Origin: a virus
Lineage: Duplodnaviria; Heunggongvirae; Uroviricota; Caudoviricetes
Strand: one strand, 5' to 3'
Length of the DNA stretch: 64,000 nt
Virus record (IMG/VR): IMGVR_UViG_3300028888_005256
The notes under the pieces were generated by a model. It searched no databases, was not told the origin of the DNA, and worked only from the letters and a program-made list of their open reading frames with translations. The position numbers and the translations under genes were made by a program. Shown here in pieces: positions 4,291 through 53,428 of the stretch; position 1 is the first letter of the stretch, and each line of letters starts with the position of its first letter.

Positions 4291-5025
4291 CTATACACAG
4301 ATTCTTGTAATGCTGTTGAGATTCTGACCATCACAACAAATAGCTGCTTCACTATCAGTCGCTACAAGATATTTGTTGCTGTGACCAAGAACGATTTTTT
4401 GAGCTGAGAATTCTATAACAGGCGTTGTAATCTGTATTCCTGTACTTCTCATATTTATTTGAGAATATTGTCTATTTCCTGTTCCGACACCATTTCTAGC
4501 AGTAAGAACTATGCTATCATCACCTATGAAAATCATAGAACCATAACTGTTCATTATCCATTTTGCACCTGTCTTAATAGACATAAACTCTACAAGAGTG
4601 TTGTTCGGATTTTGTAAAGTTACACTTAGGTCAGAGTAGTTCATTTCAGAAACTTCTGAAGAGTTTCTTTCTGCTACTTGCAAAGATTCCTCATAGTTCC
4701 AGCTACCGACCATAGCTTTGCTGTACTCACCAAATACATTTGCAGGACCGAGCACATAGCCAAAAGTAAAATCATAATTTGCAATAACCCAAATCAAATC
4801 ACCTGACTTTGTATCTGGATTAGGGTTTATTTCAGTGTAGTACTTTGGTGCTTGGCCTTTGAACAGAGGCGGATATATTGGCAAGTAGTCTAAGTCATTT
4901 CCGTCTAAGTCGGCCATAAATGGCAAGATTCTGACTTTAAGTCTATCATCACCATTCGACATGCTATCATAGACTCTTGCTTTATAGAGTTTTAAAGTAT
5001 CATTTTGCTCATTCATTATTAGCAC
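4291..5025 (-). CDS. baseplate spike / gp5-VgrG-like OB-fold protein
   Basis: YKARV...DDRLKVRILP...GDLIWV.....YVLG OB-fold pattern, beta-rich C-terminus, position after hub gene. Confidence 0.55.
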   Translation of the reverse strand: MLIMNEQNDTLKLYKARVYDSMSNGDDRLKVRILPFMADLDGNDLDYLPIYPPLFKGQAPKYYTEINPNPDTKSGDLIWVIANYDFTFGYVLGPANVFGEYSKAMVGSWNYEESLQVAERNSSEVSEMNYSDLSVTLQNPNNTLVEFMSIKTGAKWIMNSYGSMIFIGDDSIVLTARNGVGTGNRQYSQINMRSTGIQITTPVIEFSAQKIVLGHSNKYLVATDSEAAICCDGQNLNSITRICV

Positions 5026-6308
5026 TCCTGAAGCATTGAAGGCATTGTCAAAGTTGTTTTATTTGCATCATACAAGAATGTCGGTCTTCGAACAGTTAGG
5101 GTTGTTGTCATAATCTCATTAGGCTTGTCTAGAATATGACGAACTGCTTTCACATTCCATAAGCCGCTAATCCAGTGAATTTCTTTCTGAGGAACTGATA
5201 CTGTTCCATCTGGGTTTAGAGCAGGAAAGAATAGATTTATATTGTCACCAGTCTTCAAGTCTGGTCCAGAGAATCTTCCTGAGATGCTAAGCGTGAACAA
5301 ATCATAGAAATTGCCAAGTGAAGACTTTACTGAAGCTAATCCGTCTTTCGTCAAAGAATCATATTGAGCTTTTTTCGCTGTGCAGTCAAGCTTTCCCAAA
5401 TACGAAATAGCTACAGGCATTTTATTTCCAACCATGCTCAAGCTGTTTATTTTTATCTGAGGCGCAAAAGTGCTCCAAACAGTTGAGCCTGCAATTGACT
5501 GACCGTCTGACAAAACGTCTATTTTCAAATTGTCAATGATTCTGCTGTAGTTCTCATCATTCACATTAAGCTTCATAGAATTGTACATAAAGACATTATC
5601 TGCATTGTCGTTCACGAGATCTTTCATTAAGTCTCTGTACTCAAGAATTGAAGGTTCATAAGCTGCTACAGCTACATAGTCTTTTCTGAAGAGATTATTG
5701 AATGTTGTCAAATGCGGTCTATTTACTTCATCAATCCAAAAAATTGGAGGATCTCTATTTATGAGTGTATTTGGAAGTATCTTATTCAGAATGAAGTCTT
5801 TATCTGATTCACAAACCATGTATCTCGGCTGTGAGCCAGACTCATCTGACTGTTCAATCAAGTCTCTGTCTATATTAAATTCCCATGATCGTCCGCTTTT
5901 TCCCAATATGTCTAGAATTATCTCAGAGTTACATTTGTCATGGAATATTTTTGATGAGTGCTCTTTAAAGAATTCCCAAGGATGGACTGCTAAGATCTGG
6001 ATAGCTCCTGTAAGTCGAGACATGTTCTCAAAAGCGTCACCAATAGCAGAGATTCGTAATTCACAAAATTTGTTTAGAGCTCTGCTAGGGTTTGTCTGTC
6101 CCTCAATCTCGTCAACAACTGAAAATCTTACTACTGAGCCTATTGCTAGATTATAGAATCTTGATAACTTTTCTCCGCTTTTGTCATTGATGACAAATAT
6201 CGCTTTCGGAAAACCTGTGTCTATATCACAAGTATACTCAAAAGAGAGTATATCTTCTGTCTCAATTCTTTCATTTTCAATAGCCAAGAGCAGTCTTGGG
6301 TTTACCAT
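5019..6308 (-). CDS. baseplate hub protein (gp27/gpD-like)
   Basis: ESDKDFI; C-terminal GDNINL...ISGLWNVKAVRHIL...TTLTVRR typical of hub proteins; tail module context. Confidence 0.55.
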   Translation of the reverse strand: MVNPRLLLAIENERIETEDILSFEYTCDIDTGFPKAIFVINDKSGEKLSRFYNLAIGSVVRFSVVDEIEGQTNPSRALNKFCELRISAIGDAFENMSRLTGAIQILAVHPWEFFKEHSSKIFHDKCNSEIILDILGKSGRSWEFNIDRDLIEQSDESGSQPRYMVCESDKDFILNKILPNTLINRDPPIFWIDEVNRPHLTTFNNLFRKDYVAVAAYEPSILEYRDLMKDLVNDNADNVFMYNSMKLNVNDENYSRIIDNLKIDVLSDGQSIAGSTVWSTFAPQIKINSLSMVGNKMPVAISYLGKLDCTAKKAQYDSLTKDGLASVKSSLGNFYDLFTLSISGRFSGPDLKTGDNINLFFPALNPDGTVSVPQKEIHWISGLWNVKAVRHILDKPNEIMTTTLTVRRPTFLYDANKTTLTMPSMLQEC

Positions 6309-6644: not shown

Positions 6645-7817
6645 TTATTCTCCATCAAAAAAGCCAAGAGGACTTGCTTGCATTTCATCAGATTGTCCTT
6701 TACCAGCTTTCATAATATTGTCCAAACTCTGATTAGAACTGAATGCAATAGATGCAAATGAATCTCTTGTTGCAGTAACGAATCCTTTGATACCAGAAAT
6801 TGTTATAGAGCCCTTTGCAGGCCAGCCATATTCATCTAGTAAAGATGTATCAAAGTTAACATTTACGCCTTCTATAGTGCAAGGACCAAAAGAGAACTTT
6901 CCAAGTCTTATGTTCCAAAAAGCATATTTTCCACTTTTAATGACTTCAGCACTTCCCTTTCTTAGCACTTTGTAGTAGTCTGTAAGAATAGTTTCTGCAG
7001 CATTTATAGCAGAAGTTGTAGCATCACCAGCTGTTGCAGAAGACAATGCATCGCCAGAGAGAAGCTTTTTTGCATTATCTCTTAAAGCTGAGCCTACTCC
7101 TGAAATATATGAAGCTGTGAACTCAGACTTTGTGGGATAAGGCGTTATGTACTTTCTGTCAAGGTCTGATTTTCCAGATTCTGCTCTAGGAAGTGTTATG
7201 TTTCCTAATGCCATGATAGGCTTCACAACCTCTTCTAGTCCTGAAAACAATCCATACTGTCCAAATGAAAAGTCAAATTCGAGAGAACCATCAATCTGCA
7301 ATGACGATGCTTCACCAAACAATCGAGGCTTTGTGTACGGTGAAAGTCGAGTAGATGCGACTCTATCATCTTTGCTTCCAATGCCAAATGCTTTCAATGT
7401 TTCAAGAAGATCAGTTGCTTTGTCAGCAAAGCCTCCTACACCACCAAATGTATTTGCATCTTTTAAGTCAAGATTATACATTATCTTAAAGCTCTGATCT
7501 TTCGGAAAAAGTGCTACATTTTCATGAACATCAAACAATCCATTTACAGAAGCTTTTTTCCAGTTGTCAAGTTGTGAAGCATTTGCCACTGTAGCAGGAG
7601 AACCAATTGAGATAAAGCATCGTTTATTGAGATTATAGTGCTTTGGCAAATTGTCGAGAATGCGTCCGTCATTACTCATCTCATAAGAAGAACTGTACTC
7701 AACGGGACTGGTCTCTGAACTACCGTCATTCTTAGTATTTAAGTGAGATGTGCCTGTTATTGATGCTTTTTTAGAGCCTGCAATTGCTTCTGCAAGCCAC
7801 TCATTTATTCCTGACAT
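6645..7817 (-). CDS. putative tail tube initiator / baseplate protein (gp48/gp54-like)
   Basis: GPCTIEGVNVNFD...GWPAKGSITIS tube-fold-like strand pattern; directly after the tape measure gene. Confidence 0.4.
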   Translation of the reverse strand: MSGINEWLAEAIAGSKKASITGTSHLNTKNDGSSETSPVEYSSSYEMSNDGRILDNLPKHYNLNKRCFISIGSPATVANASQLDNWKKASVNGLFDVHENVALFPKDQSFKIMYNLDLKDANTFGGVGGFADKATDLLETLKAFGIGSKDDRVASTRLSPYTKPRLFGEASSLQIDGSLEFDFSFGQYGLFSGLEEVVKPIMALGNITLPRAESGKSDLDRKYITPYPTKSEFTASYISGVGSALRDNAKKLLSGDALSSATAGDATTSAINAAETILTDYYKVLRKGSAEVIKSGKYAFWNIRLGKFSFGPCTIEGVNVNFDTSLLDEYGWPAKGSITISGIKGFVTATRDSFASIAFSSNQSLDNIMKAGKGQSDEMQASPLGFFDGE

Positions 7818-7834
7818 AATTCACTATTTCTCCA

Positions 7835-10800
7835 TTAAATCTTGAATATAGAAACTGGCATTGTTGGCTTATCTGTTGGAGCAGGTGTATTAGGACTATT
7901 GCTGTAGACCATAATTCCCTGCTCATTCCAAATCATAAGAATGTCTTTAATAGACTCTACATCTTTCTCTAGTTGACTCTTTGGTCCACCGCTTACTGTA
8001 GGGTTGACTTTGAAGTCGATTGCTGATGCATTTTTCACAACTTCACTTTGAATCTTCTTGTCAAGGTTCTTGTACTCTTTATTGAAGTCTTTAAGGGAGA
8101 GTGCACCGCTTGCAAGAGCAGATGACAATCTTTCTGTTGCGACTGCTAGTCTTACTATTGCATTTCCTGAATCATCAATGCTCGCTGGTGCAATTTGATT
8201 CAAGAAGTCCATTGAGATATTTATGCTCGAGAATGTAGTTGTAAATCCTGCTACAGACTTAGAGATTCTCTCAACTTTAGACACATCACTATTGCTCATG
8301 TCTGTGATAGCTTCAAAAGCAGTAGTAAGATTTGTAAGTTGTTTTTTGATATTGTCTGCTGAAGCAGTTCTGCTAGATGAGAGCTTCAGCATGACTTCAT
8401 TTATTATTCCAAGAGACTCAATGCAAGGTCTGATTTTGTTTACCATGAGATCTTTTGCTCTATCAAGAGTGTCTTCTGGAGATCCCTCCCAAAGTGTCTT
8501 AAATGCGCCTTTGATACCTTCAGGAGTGATGTTTGAAAGAACTGTCTGCAAAGACTTTACAAAGTTCACCATCTTCATAGTGTTGTTGATTGAAACTTGC
8601 ATGTCTTTCATATCTGCAATATTGTCAGCTACATACTTCAAAGAACTTATTGATGGTACAACTTGATCAGACATGAGCTTATTTGCATTAGTAATTTGCT
8701 CAAACGGATCACCAAGGAAGAATTCTCTCAAGCCGCCTGGAGTGAATGACCTCAAGACATCTGTAAGTTTCTTTACAAAATCGGTGACTTTCAAGAGTCT
8801 TTCAATGCTTTGCTCAATATTGTTTATCTGAGATGCTTCTTTAATAGTTTTTGTAACTGAAAGAATTGATTGTGAGACTTCTGGCATAACTTTAATCGTC
8901 TCTACAGCACTCTTTCTTACGCCTTTTACAGACTTCGTAACAAGATTGAATACTGCTAAGAAACCACTATTCTTTCCCTTTACACCACCCATGATTTTCT
9001 TCATCTGAGTGATAGCCATATTTATAGTCTTGTCATCAATCTTCTTGAAGCTTGTAATGAGTCCAGATATTTTTGTGATAGAATCTGCAATAGGGAGAAG
9101 TGCTTGAGAAACAAGTGCAAAGCTTTTTCTTCCCTGCTTGTCCATATTGTTCGCAACTGAAACAAGAGAATTTACAATATTGATGAATGGCTCAAAAGCT
9201 TTGTCCCATCCGCCCATTTGGTCTTCTTGTCTCTTAGCATCAAGATTCATTTTCTGAACTTGAGAAATTGAGTTTGCAATAACAACAATTGCTTCTGAAA
9301 GAGAAGTCAATTTCTTAGCTTGAGCAATTGTTTTGAAGATGCCAGGCAAGTCTATGCTTGTAAGCTGCTTTGCAATGTCACTAAATGCATCAAATCCTTG
9401 CTTACCAAGCTCAGGGTCATATTTGTAGAATTCGTATGTAGTTCCGTCCCAAGTAATCTTACCGCCAGTAGTCATCATTGTTGCAAATGTAAGTGCTTTA
9501 GCCATCAAGATTGTAGTACCAGCTACACCAAGACAAACACCTGCTGCAAGAGCTACAAATGGTCCGACTACAGTAAGAGCTAAACCAAGAGCTGCATAAG
9601 CCGTCAAGAAGCCTGTCATTAAGCCAAGTGATTCAAGGGCTGCGAGGCCCTTGTTTCCTTCTTTCATAGAGAAGTGACCAAGAGGGCCTGCATCCATGTC
9701 TCCGCCTTCAACTGCCCATACTGCTAGGCCAAGTGCAAGACCAAATGAAGCCAATGAAAGAGACATAAGCATTGTAGTTCCTGCAAACAATGCAATATTG
9801 CCTGCAAAGCTGTTTGCAAGAGTTGCTATGAGAACGAATCCGCCTATGAAAGCACCAAACATTCCAAGAGCTTCCCAGACTCTTGCAGTATTTACACCAC
9901 GAACTTTTGCACCGATAACTGGGACTGTGAACTCTGCGCCTTCGTCAAACACCCTGTCAACAATAAGCAATGAAAGAGAGAATACTGCAAGAGCACCAGC
10001 CATTGCCATTGTGCCAACTGCGAATTTTGTGAATTGAGCGCCGTTATTTCCAACAATTCTTGCAACAATGCCCATGCCAATTGCAAATGCTGTGAACATT
10101 CCAATAGCTGTCAAAGCAGACGCAACCTTTATAGCATCAAGCTCAATATTCAAAATAGGAATCTTAAGGCCAGTGCCCTCAAAAATCTTAGATGCAATTG
10201 ACAAAGAAAGCGCAAACACTGCAAGAGAAGATGCGAGCATAAATGAGCCCATTCCAAATTGCGCAAACTCTTTTGTGCTTTCTCCTGCTAATTTTGCTAA
10301 GCCAGTCACGCCAGCCATAAATGCACCAAATGTAACAAGTGCAGCAATAGCACCACCAAGATTTATTCCTGGGAGGTCAATAATGCCAGGTACATTGATT
10401 GATCCGCCACTAAAAATAGAAGATGCAATATAAAGAGAAACTGCAAATGTACTCAAAGCAGCAGACATGAGCATAGAGCCTTCTGCAAATGACACAAGAT
10501 TTTCTTTTTCAGGTTTGAGCAACTTTGCTAAGCCAACCATTCCTACAGTAAAAGCAGTGAAAGCGAGCAAGCCAACAATAGCTTTGCCCCAGTTTACAAA
10601 ATTAAATATAAGAGTAGCACCTGCAAAAGCTAGCAAAGCAACACCTAAAGCTGCAATGCCTGATACGCCCTCTAGCAGTCCTTTGAAGAATCCCGAGATT
10701 CCCCCGCCTTTTTTCTTTTTATCACTGCTTGTGTTCTTTGCAATTTCGTCAAGTTTCCACCAAATGAGAGCAAGACCTGTACCGAAATCACCCTTGTTTG

Positions 10801-24023: not shown

Positions 24024-24042
24024 AAAGAAATATTAACATTCT

Positions 24043-24217: not shown

Positions 24218-24248
24218 TTTTCTAAAATGAATTGTTAATATACATTTT

Positions 24249-47601: not shown

Positions 47602-47632
47602 ATAAGGGCTCTAAACGAGCCCTTTTTATTTT
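47602..47632. terminator. intrinsic terminator
   Basis: AAGGGCTC-taaac-GAGCCCTT with A-run and T-run. Confidence 0.75.
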
Positions 47633-47651: not shown

Positions 47652-48203
47652 TTACTCTTTTACAATTCCAACTTGACAGCTTGCCATTACATCAAGTGCA
47701 TGCTCATGCTTCTCAGGAGTAAGTCCAGCACAAAGATTTGCAAGAACAGAAACTTTTACTTCAGGGAAAGCTGCTTTAAGAATAAGAGCATTTGAGATAA
47801 CACAAATGTCTGTACATGTACCACAAATTTCAATTTCAGCAGGGACACCAACTTTCAAGAACTCAAGAACAGTCTGAGGCAATGCCATTGAGCCAAATGT
47901 GTTCTTAACGTGATCCTTAAGGCGAGGATAGCCCTTGATAGCAGTCTCAATTTCTTCAACAAGACGCCATCCATCAGACTGGAAGATACAATGCTCTACA
48001 GGGAGATTCTCGCCTTCCTGAGTTTCAAGATAGCCCTGCGTATGAGAATCAAGAGTGCAAACAATAGGATAGCCCTTTTCTTTGTAGTCTTCGATCTTCT
48101 TTACAATGCCTGGTACAATTTTTTCTGCATCTTTATTTGCTAAGCTGCCTGTTACAAAATCTTTCTGCATGTCGACAACGACAAGAATTTTAGACTTCAT
48201 CAT
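47652..48203 (-). CDS. pncA: nicotinamidase / isochorismatase-family cysteine hydrolase
   Basis: VVVDMQKDF, DSH, EHC, KNTFGS, GTCTDICV. Confidence 0.85.
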   Translation of the reverse strand: MMKSKILVVVDMQKDFVTGSLANKDAEKIVPGIVKKIEDYKEKGYPIVCTLDSHTQGYLETQEGENLPVEHCIFQSDGWRLVEEIETAIKGYPRLKDHVKNTFGSMALPQTVLEFLKVGVPAEIEICGTCTDICVISNALILKAAFPEVKVSVLANLCAGLTPEKHEHALDVMASCQVGIVKE

Positions 48204-48218
48204 ATAAAATATTCTCCT

Positions 48219-48836
48219 TTATTCTTCATATAGCTCTTTCTTAGAAGATGTCAATTCTGCAATTGAGTTCCTTGAAAGCTGACCAAGATTGAATCCGTAG
48301 TTATTCCACAAATCAATTGATTTCTGCAAGAAGCTTCTTTTTGACTCTGCAAGATTTACAGCTGTATGGAGAGCTGAGTATTCTTTCCTGTACTTAACTC
48401 TTACAAGACGCTCAATCTCATCTTTTGAAAGCCACTTGTTCTTTGCTTTGTCGTCAGTGTTTACTTCTCTTGCGACTTCTACGTACTTCACATCCATCCA
48501 ATCCTGGAGGACATCTGTTGCATCTTGCTTGTCCCATCTGTTCTGCTCGTAAAGAGCTACAAGAGCAAGCATGATTTTTGCATGAGAAGAAAGTGCATAA
48601 TTTAACTTATCAAGAGTTGGCGCAGCAGAACCGTCAAACAAAAGTTTCTGATCCATTTTTTGAATCTGGTCAGTAACAAATGCAATAAACACTTTCTCTG
48701 CCTTTTCCATGTCCTGCTTTACAGGAGACTCTGACAAAATCACATCTGCAGCTTCAAGAGCACTTTTCTCTGAAGGCTTCTTTTCCTCGACTTTTTCGAG
48801 GAATTCATTATCATCTGTTGTCTGAATTTGTCTCAT
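48219..48836 (-). CDS. helical protein, possibly UvsY-like recombination mediator
   Basis: KDEIERLV...SKRSFLQKSI....GFNLGQL loosely resembles the UvsY C-terminus. Confidence 0.35.
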   Translation of the reverse strand: MRQIQTTDDNEFLEKVEEKKPSEKSALEAADVILSESPVKQDMEKAEKVFIAFVTDQIQKMDQKLLFDGSAAPTLDKLNYALSSHAKIMLALVALYEQNRWDKQDATDVLQDWMDVKYVEVAREVNTDDKAKNKWLSKDEIERLVRVKYRKEYSALHTAVNLAESKRSFLQKSIDLWNNYGFNLGQLSRNSIAELTSSKKELYEE

Positions 48837-48852
48837 AAGAGAATATTAACAT

Positions 48853-49749
48853 TTATCTGTATGAATCTATGATAGACTTGATTTTTTTGAATGCGGTTTC
48901 CCAGCTTATGTCTTGCTTTATTGGCTTGAAGTCTTCTTTAAGCAAATCGTCTAGACAAACTGTATCATTTACATCATAAACATTATCATAGTCTTTGGAT
49001 GCAGGACAATTGCTCTGAAGAACTGGCAAATGTGCGTCTAAATATTGAAGTAGTTTTAATGGCAATTGTCCGTCTGTGTATTCCGACTTTACAAACGGAA
49101 CTAAGCCTACATGACATTTCTTTAGCTCATCATATATGAGCTTTTGATCCATGAACTCACAAAGCTCTATATTAGAATCTTTTAGAGGAAATTCTTCTAT
49201 CTCGTTGAGACCGATAAGTTTGATAGACCAATCTGGGTTTGCAACAGCAATTTTATGCAGCACATCAAGATCAATTTTGCCTACTTGACCAATATAAACA
49301 GCTGTTTTCTTGCTGTACTTCTCTGAAAGAACGAAATCATGAATCTCGCAGCCATTCGGAATAAAGAAAGAGTTTTTATTTAATGAGATTGCGTCTTCAT
49401 ATAAGACTTTTGCACTACAAGTAACTGCGTCTGCAATCTTCATAGTAGGAACATCAAAATCTTTCGTTGACAGCTCACTATAATTCCATCTGTCTGTTCT
49501 GTCATAAATAATTGAGCAATTATGTTTTTTAAGAAATTCTAAAAAGAATGGTGAAAAAGAGGGCCTAGACAGAAGCACTACAGCATCTTTTAAGTATTCT
49601 AGCAAAGACAAAGCATTTGCTTCTGTATGAATCTCTGCAAAAATGTAATCTTCGCTAGAGTACCTCTGCTCTAAAAACTTCTTAAGTCTAGCTCTACGAT
49701 AGTAGTCTTGCCCAGTCACTTTCTCTGCGAAATGAAGCACTTTTTTCAA
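48853..49749 (-). CDS. GT-B glycosyltransferase (GT4-like)
   Basis: IIYDRTD, ADAVTCSAKVL, IPNGC, VYIG, VGLVPF...PLKLLQYL..LPVL. Confidence 0.85.
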   Translation of the reverse strand: MKKVLHFAEKVTGQDYYRRARLKKFLEQRYSSEDYIFAEIHTEANALSLLEYLKDAVVLLSRPSFSPFFLEFLKKHNCSIIYDRTDRWNYSELSTKDFDVPTMKIADAVTCSAKVLYEDAISLNKNSFFIPNGCEIHDFVLSEKYSKKTAVYIGQVGKIDLDVLHKIAVANPDWSIKLIGLNEIEEFPLKDSNIELCEFMDQKLIYDELKKCHVGLVPFVKSEYTDGQLPLKLLQYLDAHLPVLQSNCPASKDYDNVYDVNDTVCLDDLLKEDFKPIKQDISWETAFKKIKSIIDSYR

Positions 49750-50234
49750 AATACTGTCTCTTTCGTAATAATGCTTGTATTGAACGGAAGAGGACCAGTT
49801 GGATCGATCTCCTCTACTTCAGCAGACTGGAAAAGTGCTTTTAAAAGCTCAATTTGGTCTTTATCCATTGAGCCTTTGTCTATAAGAATTTTTTTCAAAT
49901 TTTTAAGTTTTGGAACTTGGTCAAAGGGGAATGATGACAGATTGTCTACATAAATCCAGCTTTCTTCAGTATTGATCTCTTCTACAGTGGGCCATCTATC
50001 AGCTAAAATATGTTCACCACAGAATAGCACAGCCGGAACATCAGACAAGTCGGAAACTATGAATTTTGCAAGTACTTGTTTTCCTGCATAATAAGACTTA
50101 ATGTAATTTCTCAAGTCTAATGGCATCTCTTCGTCACTTATGAAAGTGATAGAGTCACCAGACGAGAAAAACTCAATAGCGGGTAATACAAAAACATCAC
50201 CCTTCAAGAATGTTTTATATAAAGAATTAGCCAA
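49746..50234 (-). CDS. hypothetical protein in the radical SAM operon
   Basis: 162 aa; 4-bp overlap with the glycosyltransferase start. Confidence 0.65.
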   Translation of the reverse strand: MANSLYKTFLKGDVFVLPAIEFFSSGDSITFISDEEMPLDLRNYIKSYYAGKQVLAKFIVSDLSDVPAVLFCGEHILADRWPTVEEINTEESWIYVDNLSSFPFDQVPKLKNLKKILIDKGSMDKDQIELLKALFQSAEVEEIDPTGPLPFNTSIITKETVF

Positions 50235-50248
50235 AGTTTCTCTCCATT

Positions 50249-52192
50249 TTAGCCAAGAGGATTATAGAATCTATTACAGTCTGTATGCTTGTAGTAACAA
50301 TTTTTGTAAAGAGTCTTGCATTCAGAGTATACATTAATGCATTCAGCGTATTTTCTCCAGCATTCTGTTGTGTAGTCTTTTCTGTAGCATTCAGTATAGA
50401 AATTTATGCACTCTTTATAATAGTACGTACAGTTGCCGTAATACTGAAGATGAATACAATTAGCATACTTCACATGCGTATAGCATTCAGGGTACACCAT
50501 GTAGCAGTCAGAGTATACTGTATTTTCTCTCCAGACATAATGATTCCTGTTAAGATATCCTTGACTAAGTCCAGCACCTGTGGTCTTAGTAGAACAGTTA
50601 CAGTTGCAGTCATAGTCTGAGCAGTCAACGAAACATGCCCAATAACAATCACGTGATGCGACAGATCTGCCGCTCCAATGTGTACCAAAAGTAGCAACAT
50701 TGCTTGTTTGACAATGATAGGGTGTGCCTCTCGAAACAACAGGACAGTCAGTCTCTAAGAGCGAGCCCCACAGATTCCCACTCCATGAAGCATAACTAGT
50801 TTGCTGCGGTGTGGTGTACTCGATCCAGTCATTAGTACTGCCGTATGCCTTTGAATAAGCTTCTCTGTAATGATACTGATCAGAGCTCAAAAAACTAGAT
50901 GCTACTGTATTGTACTTTTGCTTATAAGTTGTTTTAGGGTCAGACCAAAATGCATAAGAATTATATTTTGTGGGAGAAAGATTATTTGCAGAGAGACTCA
51001 GATCTTGCGTATAGCCCGTAGCCTTATAGACTACAGAGCCAGTTTTGTCTATGTCATTTCTTGCGCTCACACAGTCAGTACAGTCATAAGTGTTTGTAGC
51101 TCTTGTTGTTCGATTTGAGAGCATTGTATCAGCTTCAGCTGAGCCAAATGTGTTGTTTAACTCAGATTTTGTAGAAAATGCTTTAGTACTGTTTCCATTC
51201 TTCCAATAGGCAGCAGAACATTCTTGATGCTGTGAATTTGTCACTTCATCAGATATTTTATATGATGTTGTGTTAGAGCCAGCTCTGTAAAAATGACCCA
51301 TGTCTGCAGTAGTCAGACCTGTTCCTGCAGAATTGAAGTCTGTAGACCTTGCTGCGTAATACTTTACGTATTTGTAGTCGCCTGAGCCAGAAGCTGGAAC
51401 ATCTGCTGCTTGTGAAATAGTTGGATTCGGCGGATTTCCCCATTCAGGTGCTTTGTCTTCATTGTACTTTTTAGTAGGTATAAGACTATTATCAATAGCT
51501 GGATAATTTTTATAAAGTCTACCACTGGAAATATTTGAACTAACAGAGCTTCCATTTTTCAATGTTATGTTTGTAGGACCGTTTCCGTCTAATTCAAGTC
51601 CGCCATCTGCTGTGTTTTTCCAGAAGGGCATTGACTCATAGTCACCTTTATTATCATTCGCAGTGTCAAAGTTTTGCACATACGCATTGTTTACTTTTAT
51701 TGCAGTGCAGTCGCCTTGTCTTTTCTCAACATGTCCTGCAGAATCTTCAGATGAGTAAGATGGCCTTATAGCAGTACACACCTTATCACCACCAGCAGTA
51801 CAGTCACAATCGAAGTCTTTAGAGGAGTACATAGACTGGTCTAGTCTATAAATTGTGCCTGATGGTACAGTAACTCCATTCTGCAATACTGCGTTTTGAG
51901 CTTTGAGTTTATTGTACGGCAACACTGTTACTGAAGATTGTGTCTTTGGGAAATTGCTATTTCCTGCATCAGCAGAGTTCATTTTCAGAGTAGTCTTGCC
52001 ATCTTTAAGAAGACGAGCATATAATGTGTGTTTCACATTGCTGTCATCTACGTACTCGACTTTAAGGTACTTACCGCCCTCACTTTTTACATCATCTGTA
52101 GAAGTCCAGAGCGGCACAATTACTGTCTCACCAGTCGCAGTACCACTATCATTCAAGACTTTAAGTATTAAATTTTTGCTGTATCTGCTCAT
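50249..52192 (-). CDS. 647-aa Ser/Thr/Tyr/Cys-rich protein with C-terminal periodic Cys repeats; candidate radical SAM substrate
   Basis: 4-bp ATGA overlap with the rSAM gene; CxC clusters; 11 (Y/H)x(D/E/N)C units at the C-terminus. Confidence 0.8.
   Translation of the reverse strand: MSRYSKNLILKVLNDSGTATGETVIVPLWTSTDDVKSEGGKYLKVEYVDDSNVKHTLYARLLKDGKTTLKMNSADAGNSNFPKTQSSVTVLPYNKLKAQNAVLQNGVTVPSGTIYRLDQSMYSSKDFDCDCTAGGDKVCTAIRPSYSSEDSAGHVEKRQGDCTAIKVNNAYVQNFDTANDNKGDYESMPFWKNTADGGLELDGNGPTNITLKNGSSVSSNISSGRLYKNYPAIDNSLIPTKKYNEDKAPEWGNPPNPTISQAADVPASGSGDYKYVKYYAARSTDFNSAGTGLTTADMGHFYRAGSNTTSYKISDEVTNSQHQECSAAYWKNGNSTKAFSTKSELNNTFGSAEADTMLSNRTTRATNTYDCTDCVSARNDIDKTGSVVYKATGYTQDLSLSANNLSPTKYNSYAFWSDPKTTYKQKYNTVASSFLSSDQYHYREAYSKAYGSTNDWIEYTTPQQTSYASWSGNLWGSLLETDCPVVSRGTPYHCQTSNVATFGTHWSGRSVASRDCYWACFVDCSDYDCNCNCSTKTTGAGLSQGYLNRNHYVWRENTVYSDCYMVYPECYTHVKYANCIHLQYYGNCTYYYKECINFYTECYRKDYTTECWRKYAECINVYSECKTLYKNCYYKHTDCNRFYNPLG
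50252..50515 (-). repeat. protein-level tandem repeat, Cys every 7 or 9 residues
   Basis: YSDC YPEC YANC YGNC YKEC YTEC YTTEC YAEC YSEC YKNC HTDC. Confidence 0.9.
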
Positions 52193-53379
52193 TTGTCCTC
52201 AGTAGCTGAACAGTCACACTCCTCAATAGTAACGTCTTTCTCTGTAAGAACATTTTCTGGTCTGGCTGGTGCAGGCTCTATAGGAGAGGCGCCCATTGAA
52301 GCAGCAATGAGGTCTGTTCTGTGTCTGTCAAACTCAATATATTCTTTCATATAAGTATAAAAGTTTATATAGTTAGTACAGTTGGCTCTTCTCTGGTCAT
52401 CTGTAAGGACAGCACAAATACCACCACACATATTTTTTACAGGACAAGTATCGCATTCTGGAAGCAGTTTGAAATTCTCTTTTTTCATGAGCTCTGCGTA
52501 GGTCTCAGAGTCTACTACACTTCGTCTTTCACAATCTTGAACACATCTGTATTCTTTTCCTGAAAGGCCGACAGTCAATGACTCAAATGTTGCGCAGGGA
52601 TACTCAGCTTTATCACCAAATAGAAGATAATTGAGAGCTCTGTCTTGGTCTGTAGAGAACATAAAACGAACTTTTGGCCTATGCAATCTGTCAGTAACGC
52701 TATCTGCCATCTGTCCAAAAGTGTAATCAAGGAACTCATTGTGCTTATTGATGTCTGGCATAAAGTCTTTTGTCCATTCATCAGTCTCTCTAAAGATGGA
52801 CCAAGAAACTTCTACTGGGAACTCAATGACATTATCTGCGACATTTGTCCAGTAGTCTATCTGCTTATCAAGATCGCAGCTTTCAGAAGTAAGGACAATG
52901 TGGAAAGAGCCAAAACAGTCATTAAGCTTTAAGAGCTTGATTGCTTCAACCTGCTCTGAGTTCGCAATCAAAAAATCTTTGCCACGAAGTGACTGACCTG
53001 AGCCATCATGAGAGATATTTACGCTTACTTTATGCTTTATGAAAAACTTCGCTTTCTCTTTTGTAAGAAGAGATCCATTTGTAATAAGAATAAGATGCGC
53101 ATACGGAAATTTCGCTCTTGCATACTCTACAACTTTTTGAAGAGTTTCATAGTTTGCAAGGGGCTCACCGCCCCAGAACTTGATGCCGCCTGCATAGTCT
53201 GGTGCTACACGTCTAAGAGCTTTGTCAAGAATATCTGGATTAAAGTCGGCTACTTTTCCAGTATGTCCATTGTGACCATCAATGTAACCGCCGAAGCAGT
53301 ACTTGCATTTCATATTACAGATTGCATTTTCCATGCAAATCTCAATTATAGAAGGGTATCTTTTAAAATCTCTGTTCAT
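52189..53379 (-). CDS. radical SAM enzyme with SPASM domain (anSME/peptide-maturase-like)
   Basis: CNMKCKYC (CxxxCxxC), FWGGEPL, ITNG, ISHDG; auxiliary C...GKEYRC and CDTCPVKNMCGGIC...C. Confidence 0.92.
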   Translation of the reverse strand: MNRDFKRYPSIIEICMENAICNMKCKYCFGGYIDGHNGHTGKVADFNPDILDKALRRVAPDYAGGIKFWGGEPLANYETLQKVVEYARAKFPYAHLILITNGSLLTKEKAKFFIKHKVSVNISHDGSGQSLRGKDFLIANSEQVEAIKLLKLNDCFGSFHIVLTSESCDLDKQIDYWTNVADNVIEFPVEVSWSIFRETDEWTKDFMPDINKHNEFLDYTFGQMADSVTDRLHRPKVRFMFSTDQDRALNYLLFGDKAEYPCATFESLTVGLSGKEYRCVQDCERRSVVDSETYAELMKKENFKLLPECDTCPVKNMCGGICAVLTDDQRRANCTNYINFYTYMKEYIEFDRHRTDLIAASMGASPIEPAPARPENVLTEKDVTIEECDCSATEDK

Positions 53380-53398
53380 TAATAAATATTAACAGAGC

Positions 53399-53428
53399 AA
53401 AAAAAGCTGCAGAAAAACTGCAGCTCAT
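53399..53428 (-). terminator. intrinsic terminator between 53450-54061 and the rSAM operon
   Basis: AGCTGCAG-aaaaa-CTGCAGCT with A-run on its left. Confidence 0.75.

Follow-up and report, generated by a model that had tools for sequence, protein, structure and literature searches.

A conserved pair of a radical SAM/SPASM enzyme and a Cys-rich protein in phages, with a possible role in stapling large phage proteins

Introduction

Radical S-adenosylmethionine (SAM)/SPASM enzymes are familiar chiefly as makers of small cross-linked peptides and rarely act on proteins, as they do on QhpC and sulfatases. What might such an enzyme do in a phage that encodes it directly ahead of a large protein rich in Cys and Tyr? 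The question is raised by the virus record IMGVR_UViG_3300028888_005256 (Caudoviricetes), of which we analyzed a stretch of 64,000 nucleotides (nt), here called the window. The window is included in a ~326.5 kb contig of the jumbo myovirus type from an anaerobic habitat. On its minus strand, a radical SAM/SPASM gene (52189-53379; 396 amino acids [aa], ATG at 53379) is followed by a gene for a 647-aa protein (50249-52192), and the stop codon of the first overlaps the start of the second at an ATGA.

Two further genes come next on the same strand. One encodes a 162-aa protein (49746-50234; TTG start and a GGAGAG ribosome-binding site [RBS]) and the other a glycosyltransferase-like (GT-like) protein (48853-49749; 298 aa, TTG start). 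A first-pass annotation, made from the letters of the window, had grouped the four genes as one candidate protein-modification system. All four open reading frames (ORFs) that it named are present on the minus strand.

The analysis below indicates that the 647-aa protein is probably the substrate of the adjacent enzyme. Whether the enzyme is its dedicated maturase, stapling it by thioether bonds into a fibre-like product, we regard as an evenly balanced question. Membership of the other two genes is unsupported.

Results

A conserved pair of enzyme and Cys-rich protein

We identified radical SAM homologues of 67%, 44% and 43% identity to the window enzyme in other metagenomic phage contigs. 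In each case, the gene directly downstream encodes the same N-terminal domain as the 647-aa protein (E values 6e-13, 1e-5 and 9e-5). In the window protein, the region that these partners have in common takes up the N-terminal ~60-135 residues (domain aa 1-135; 51788-52192, minus strand). A reciprocal profile search with this N-terminal domain (N-domain) retrieved only proteins lying 2-4 nt behind a radical SAM gene. The two genes adjoin in 11/11 contigs from four lineages, with anything between 25 nt of overlap and 4 nt of separation at the junctions, and the enzymes paired with N-domain proteins form one clade in a tree of radical SAM proteins.

A conserved pair, tightly coupled in translation as well, is thus seen from the enzyme side and from the substrate side, and the pairing of enzyme and substrate is well supported. 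The first-pass proposal that the large Cys/Tyr-rich protein is the substrate gains from this result, and the co-occurrence check that the annotation had asked for comes out in favor of the enzyme and its Cys-rich neighbor.

Partners in the other lineages are 193-194 aa long and contain 15-18 Cys, CxC motifs and the same bias toward [DEN(Q)]-Cys that characterizes the window protein. They mostly lack Tyr at position -3 of Cys. A metagenome scan with a profile of the close radical SAM subfamily recovered only distant relatives (<=41% identity) and no new lineage with an N-domain pair. Structure prediction for a complex of the enzyme with the N-terminal domain gave a score of 0.02, which counts neither for nor against binding.

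Locus L002 has a head-fibre-like neighbor gene, which lends indirect support to a fibre nature of the partner protein. In the lineages with ~190-aa partners, the pair is flanked by two conserved genes without a Pfam match, one encoding 318/329 aa upstream and one encoding 256/254 aa downstream (L004, 7041-7997 and 9715-10485; L006, 6419-7408 and 9122-9886). These could be additional components of the system there.

A radical SAM/SPASM enzyme of a new subfamily

By sequence, the product of 52189-53379 is a genuine radical SAM/SPASM enzyme that represents a new subfamily and is an orthologue of none of the curated types. The Pfam Radical_SAM model (PF04055) matches it with 50.6 bits against a cutoff of 29.5. 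The CX3CX2C cluster motif (C21/C25/C28) is invariant among 15 homologues. The seven-Cys SPASM signature for two auxiliary 4Fe-4S clusters (consensus CX9-15GX4C...CX2CX5CX3C...C) is complete (C262-x11-G274-x4-C279, C309-x2-C312-x5-C318-x3-C322 and C334), and its residues are invariant or nearly so in the same 15 proteins. The enzyme class named in the first-pass annotation is upheld by these features.

Only 20 residues stand ahead of CX3CX2C, and the enzyme is without the N-terminal RRE of ~90-100 aa (recognition element for RiPPs, peptides made by the ribosome and modified after translation); its match to CteB begins at CteB residue 104. Compared with solved structures, the family profile matches CteB (5wgg, 2.7e-32) and the anaerobic sulfatase-maturating enzyme anSME (4k37, 8e-31) over nearly the full length, through the SPASM region. 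The best NCBIfam matches are to maturases of Cys-containing peptides, namely the nif11, PapB, HxsB, CcpM, QhpD and SCIFF types.

Public gene calls start the gene 15 codons later (381 aa). The 396-aa form with its ATG at 53379 is supported by the DFKR.P.IIEI N-terminus conserved in homologues and by the motif-N5-ATG geometry described below. At the other end, a C-terminal extension of ~60 aa is confined to the close subfamily paired with N-domain proteins. At the C-terminus of the window enzyme (52189-52240) this extension ends ...TIEECDCSATEDK, an [E]-C-D-C motif that resembles those of the putative substrate; its CDC is not conserved in the homologues P0004 or P0005.

The Cys/Tyr-rich protein and its possible cross-links

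The 647-aa protein contains 26 Cys and 57 Tyr, is 20% Ser+Thr and is also rich in Asn. It has no match in Pfam, PHROG, NCBIfam or PDB, and nothing was found by tblastn against GenBank phages or by IMG/VR scans with single proteins of the locus. Searches of clustered proteins (5.8 billion) and, with HMMER, of representative proteins (1.8 billion) yielded a sole full-length homologue, of 84% identity. Comparison of the two genes indicates purifying selection, with a ratio of nonsynonymous to synonymous substitution rates (dN/dS) of 0.45 overall and 0.18 over aa 516-647. Structural models of the protein (AlphaFold2, mean predicted local distance difference test [pLDDT] score 29; ESM Atlas, 0.27) were too poor for a fold search.

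The Cys residues of this protein stand in a distinctive sequence context. Asp, Glu or Asn directly precedes 23/26 of them (p 2e-14), and Tyr is found at position -3 of 10/26 (p 4e-5). A Cys cluster, CYWACFVDCSDYDCNCNC (aa 516-533; 50594-50647, minus strand), contains a CxCxC motif that is also found in related phage proteins. It is followed by a C-terminal array of eleven units of 7 or 9 residues (aa 560-647; 50252-50515, minus strand), in which all Cys are kept in the 84% homologue. Each unit holds exactly one Cys and one Asp, Glu or Asn, at a spacing of C-x5 or C-x7, and each of the ten intervals from Cys to Cys measures 7 or 9 residues. Nine of the eleven units contain an exact Y-x-[DEN]-C. 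Exact matches to Y-x-[DEN]-C number 9 in aa 556-647 versus 0.44 expected, a count that none of 20000 composition-preserving shuffles reaches. We rejected the possibility that the repeats arose by recent tandem duplication of DNA; the periodicity is at the protein level, and there is no DNA tandem repeat.

SPASM enzymes that link Cys sulfur to acceptor carbons include QhpD, which acts on the protein QhpC, and CteB and PapB, which act on ranthipeptides. By analogy with them, thioether cross-linking is the likeliest chemistry for the window pair. The enzyme would use a 5'-deoxyadenosyl radical and two auxiliary clusters to take hydrogen from the side chains of Asp, Glu or Asn or from backbone carbons. 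Cys thiols would then be joined to these carbons as thioether bridges, as with QhpD, CteB and PapB. The staples would lie in the CxCxC cluster and in the eleven C-terminal units, within one chain or between the chains of an oligomer. The conserved N-terminal ~135 aa are a candidate recognition handle for the enzyme or, alternatively, a candidate virion anchor.

As the main chemical alternative, the same pair might form three-residue cyclophanes. The Tyr ring would then form a C-C bond to the beta-carbon two residues on (Y-x-[D/E/N]), in the manner of triceptide-forming radical SAM/SPASM enzymes, and the Cys would have another purpose. Nine exact Y-x-[DEN] sequences directly before Cys and the Tyr at -3 of 10/26 Cys fit this idea, as do NCBIfam matches to the cyclophane formers YhhB (7e-11) and AmcB (4e-7). 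We nonetheless consider it improbable, because the partners in other lineages keep Cys and [DEN(Q)]-Cys but mostly not Tyr at -3. Thioether-type maturases also score higher, though all these matches lie in the common core of the enzymes, and invariant Cys is the feature common to the whole wider class.

A different reading takes the Cys modules as metal sites (Zn, Fe, Fe-S or metallothionein-like). The enzyme would then act elsewhere, for example in an anSME-type formation of formylglycine, and the adjacency of the genes would reflect operon packing. Motifs such as CxC and CxCxC typically serve as metal ligands, and metal binding is known from trimeric phage fibres, at HxH sites in T4 gp12 and gp37. 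The window protein also carries two anSME-type C/S-x-A-x-R motifs, CTAIR at 139 and SVASR at 510, versus ~0.2 expected; both are kept in the 84% homologue, and of the two solved structures nearest to the enzyme, one is that of anSME.

These motifs are absent from the partner proteins of other lineages, however, and the conserved function is therefore unlikely to be an anSME-type reaction. With the anSME model the enzyme reaches 43.7 bits against a cutoff of 349, and a Pfam scan detected no sulfatase domain. Mere packing also fits poorly with an adjacency that is kept down to 43% enzyme identity, with overlapping or near-abutting genes in 11/11 contigs, and with the ~10-fold enrichment of Cys-rich ORFs across many unrelated phages described below. 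Taken together, these points leave this reading quite unlikely.

One region of the protein evolves differently from the rest. Over aa 391-460 (50813-51022, minus strand), 31 codon differences from the 84% homologue are nonsynonymous and 1 is synonymous, versus 67 nonsynonymous and 56 synonymous outside this patch (Fisher p 2e-6 for the patch versus the rest of the gene). Such a pattern is typical of a host-contact surface, and it suggests diversifying selection on one here. We rejected a diversity-generating retroelement as the source of this variability, since substitutions of every type occur, with no specificity for adenine, and the window contains no template repeat. Because of this patch and the tail-module context of relatives, the product of thioether stapling would, more tentatively, be a virion-associated, host-contacting fibre-like protein, in which redox-insensitive staples take the place of disulfides in a reducing anaerobic habitat.

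Radical SAM/SPASM genes beside Cys-rich ORFs in other phages

With a broader radical SAM profile we collected 59 loci from IMG/VR and 80 from metagenomes. In a dereplicated set of 125 loci, the positions up to two genes away from a radical SAM/SPASM gene show a ~10-fold enrichment of Cys-rich ORFs (40/445 versus 6/602, p 4e-10, an optimistic value since the test counts related loci as independent). Neighbors of the Cys-rich ORFs match Dit and tail-fibre PHROGs.

One case comes from a cultured phage, Achromobacter phage JWF (L149, NC_029075). Its tail-fibre protein gp028 (4670-6121) contains ...QNCNCDCNCNCS just ahead of a Hint domain (PF05203, 47.5 bits versus a cutoff of 32.1). The radical SAM/SPASM protein gp030 (6827-8191) is encoded two genes after gp028, inside the tail-fibre module. 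The location of related radical SAM/Cys-rich pairs in tail-fibre modules fits the idea of a stapled virion appendage that the first-pass annotation had put forward. Hint cleavage in gp028 would make its CxC run the new C-terminus, and many metagenomic phage proteins end in a comparable way, with ...CNCDCSDD.

The product could also be a RiPP-like effector or bacteriocin precursor outside the virion, with the N-terminal domain as its leader, released at lysis against competitors or the host. An N-terminus that is conserved, joined to a C-terminus that varies and is rich in Cys, mirrors leader and core; the relatives are small (193-194 aa); and the window locus lies outside any clear structural module. 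Protein effectors matured by radical SAM enzymes exist, the HxS system being one example (PMC13128918). We judge an effector unlikely, since none of the loci has an adjoining gene for a peptidase or an exporter, a 647-aa protein whose interior holds a hypervariable patch would be unusual for a RiPP, and related radical SAM/Cys-rich pairs occur inside tail modules and on genuine tail-fibre proteins.

The Cys-rich ORFs of these wider loci vary in form. Many that adjoin radical SAM/SPASM genes are extremely rich in Cys (13-37 residues), with CQxCQ, CNNCS or CxxCD repeats. They are often preceded by an amphipathic helix (..ELQ.A...L..) and often end NCNCDC(S/G)DD. Others are fibre-like proteins that end in a helix, an HxH motif and then a CxCxC tail. 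The extremely Cys-rich ORFs beside radical SAM/SPASM genes are found in L031 (6061-6821), L033 (6067-6810), L022 (6028-6921), L016 (3-377 and 2559-2888), L024 (400-834 and 3070-3510), L049 (4369-4926) and L066 (240-1070). Ten Cys-rich partner proteins gave no match to NCBIfam RiPP-precursor families.

The clade sister to the window enzyme contains arrays of five to seven radical SAM/SPASM paralogues (L008, 1910-11793; L009, 4923-11740). The paralogues are interleaved with proteins of 116-170 aa. In most of these, ...L..LA..(S/A)H(T/N)H leads into a tail that is rich in Ser, Thr, Asn and Gly and holds 1-4 Cys, and in most the last residue is Trp.

The 162-aa and GT-like genes

The first-pass annotation had all four genes in one system, in which the substrate becomes glycosylated. 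In full, this model would have the GT-like enzyme glycosylate the Ser/Thr-rich substrate, with the 162-aa protein as an accessory. The genes are co-directional and tightly packed. A 13-nt gap holding the RBS separates the 647-aa gene from the 162-aa gene, and in the 84% relative, too, the 162-aa gene comes after the large one. ATGA overlaps had been described at two junctions. The one between enzyme and substrate stands as described; the 162-aa and GT-like genes instead join at TTGA, where a TTG start overlaps a TGA stop. The 20% Ser+Thr content of the substrate, and a TuaH-like C-terminal half in the GT-like protein (E 6e-14; 51.7 bits versus a cutoff of 550), would also be in keeping with glycosylation.

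Apart from the 84% relative, however, neither gene is present in any other locus that carries the radical SAM/N-domain pair, and neither has a GenBank phage relative by tblastn. Unrelated genes are tightly packed in jumbo phages anyway. The 298-aa product is weakly identified as a GT-B/GT4-like protein. Its match to Pfam Glyco_trans_1_4 is below threshold (21.5 bits versus a cutoff of 27), its match to a PHROG glycosyltransferase is weak (2e-4), it has no sequence match in PDB, and its AlphaFold2 model, with a pLDDT of 47, lacks the quality that a fold search needs. The 162-aa protein offers a weak lead toward leucine-rich repeats (template-modeling score <= 0.5; ESM Atlas model 0.53).

We therefore give little credence to a four-gene system. 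Glycosylation of the substrate becomes a conjecture, given the sub-threshold assignment and the absence of the gene from other pair loci. The 162-aa and GT-like genes are better described as co-transcribed neighbors of the pair, whose membership in the system is unsupported.

Transcriptional borders and setting of the locus

An intrinsic-terminator-like hairpin with a 9 bp stem and a T-run (53404-53426, minus strand) ends the upstream gene and forms the 5' border of the unit, as the first-pass annotation had proposed. The motif that it had noted upstream and downstream of the unit was also found. One copy of GTTAATATT lies 5 nt ahead of the radical SAM ATG (53385-53393, minus strand), and a second lies 5 nt ahead of the ATG of a 205-aa gene, the next after the GT-like gene (48842-48850, minus strand). 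A third copy (24029-24037, minus strand) shows the same motif-N5-ATG geometry. The motif is over-represented in the window, with 5 copies versus 0.7 expected, and 0/100 shuffles reach 5.

One-mismatch copies of GTTAATATT occur at 24234, 37419 and 56465 (plus strand). The motif or its one-mismatch variant sits 5-6 nt before an ATG without a Shine-Dalgarno sequence; other genes, such as the 162-aa gene, use GGAG-type RBSs. At such a distance, the -10-like TAATAT would start transcription at the ATG, so GTTAATATT is possibly a phage promoter that yields leaderless mRNAs. The copy at 48842-48850 is possibly an internal promoter.

The GT-like gene may not mark the 3' limit of the unit, a correction to the first-pass annotation. 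No terminator directly follows it, and the first terminator-like hairpin downstream on the minus strand (47604-47624) lies two genes further. Transcription may thus continue to this hairpin, which is the probable true 3' end. The intervening genes, encoding the 205-aa orphan (48219-48836) and an isochorismatase-family (cysteine hydrolase) protein (47652-48203), may be co-transcribed with the four genes; we found no link of either to the system.

The window has a G+C content of 36-40% and also encodes tail sheath, RnlA-like ligase, NrdD, SbcC-like and helicase genes. A megablast search against GenBank phages detected no close relative of the locus.

Discussion

The conserved adjacency of enzyme and N-domain protein and the ordered Cys context of the 647-aa protein favor a dedicated maturase that staples its neighbor by thioether bonds, and several points weigh against this view. 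The Pfam SPASM model has no match in the enzyme at E <= 0.01. The enzyme is about equally near to anSME and to thioether formers, and its scores of 44-70 bits reach none of the NCBIfam equivalog cutoffs of 340-519 (PapB, QhpD, SCIFF, CcpM and anSME), so its chemistry is not readable from homology. The lineages number only four, of which two are known solely from short contigs, and the enrichment test, as said, is optimistic. A virion location is tentative, the neighbors of the window locus being a mix of nucleotide-metabolism and tail genes, a tail sheath included. Balancing both sides, we see thioether stapling by a dedicated maturase as having an even chance of being right.

A broader proposition is that many phages, including gut jumbo myoviruses, siphovirus-like prophages and the Achromobacter phage, staple Cys-rich segments (CxCxC, [DEN]-Cys) of their tail-fibre or receptor-binding proteins by covalent, redox-insensitive thioethers that radical SAM/SPASM maturases install. 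This may be so, though we hold it to be somewhat doubtful.

If stapling of this kind does occur, it would represent a previously unrecognized class of post-translational modification of virions. RiPP-type radical chemistry would for the first time have large structural proteins as substrates, with the 647-aa protein and its eleven staple units as an extreme case. It would also widen the substrate scope of radical SAM/SPASM enzymes to large fibre-like phage proteins. Virions would have a way to become stable against proteases and redox conditions in habitats that are anaerobic and reducing, in which disulfides fail. The long-puzzling arrays of radical SAM genes in phage genomes could also be accounted for.

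There are practical implications as well. The enzyme together with short Y-x-[DEN]-C or CxCxC tags might serve as a genetically encoded stapling module for protein engineering. Receptor-binding proteins of such phages may need their maturase in order to fold or function in heterologous expression.

The class of chemistry is known. What appears to be new is the use of large phage proteins as substrates, the N-domain family and the association with phage tail modules. The full-text literature that we searched, which leaves most subscription journals outside its coverage, contains no description of radical SAM/SPASM enzymes acting on phage structural or Cys-rich proteins. Within that literature, the first-pass guess that no characterized phage system with such a layout is known holds.

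Comparison with known systems

QhpD and QhpC provide the closest precedent for a protein substrate. QhpD is a radical SAM/SPASM enzyme that joins Cys to Asp and Glu carbons, and its target is a subunit of a protein, not a short peptide that is cut out. In QhpC, Cys and acceptor are spaced by 5-8 residues, which resembles the C-x5-[DEN] and C-x7-[DEN] units of the window protein. The window enzyme matches the NCBIfam QhpD model (E 8e-16), but at 57.6 bits versus a cutoff of 453 it is not an orthologue, and it lacks the ~100-aa N-terminal extension of QhpD. QhpC is a periplasmic protein of ~80-110 aa, whereas the window partner, with its 26 Cys, is a phage protein 647 aa long. The vicinity of the window locus contains no Qhp genes.

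Ranthipeptide and SCIFF-type maturases (CteB, PapB and the Tte1186 family) resemble the window system in their Cys-rich substrates and seven conserved SPASM Cys; their acceptors are Asp, Glu, Asn or Thr. By profile, no solved structure is closer than CteB (5wgg, 2.7e-32), and PapB is among the top NCBIfam matches (4.5e-19). The window enzyme nevertheless misses the equivalog cutoff and is without the N-terminal RRE of CteB, its cluster motif starting at residue 21. The substrates of these maturases are peptides of 40-60 aa with leaders, while the window system is phage-encoded and comes without a protease or exporter.

The enzyme resembles anSME in the absence of an RRE, in a radical SAM motif near the N-terminus and in the full-length profile match to 4k37 (8e-31). 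anSME likewise acts on a folded or large protein substrate, and the JWF homologue was annotated as anSME. The window enzyme differs from anSME in its score (43.7 bits versus a cutoff of 349), in the absence of a sulfatase gene and in C/S-x-P/A-x-R motifs that are not conserved across the partner family.

Among phages, the Campylobacter group II phages CP220 and CPt10 carry 11-12 unexplained radical SAM genes, for which the authors suggested a role in host metabolism and proposed no substrate proteins (PMC2853527). These genes, like the multiple radical SAM genes of other large phages, form paralogue arrays similar to those of L008 and L009, and their products are weak sequence relatives of the window enzyme. 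Only the N-terminal radical SAM core aligns with the latter (~29% over 130 aa).

The JWF enzyme gp030 belongs to a different radical SAM clade, and gp028 has a Hint domain after its CxC run, no N-domain and no Tyr-Cys heptad array. The two JWF proteins are nonetheless similar to the window pair in that gp030 is 25.9% identical to the window enzyme over 77% of the query (E 6e-16) and is encoded near a CxCxC-bearing fibre (NCNCDCNCNCS).

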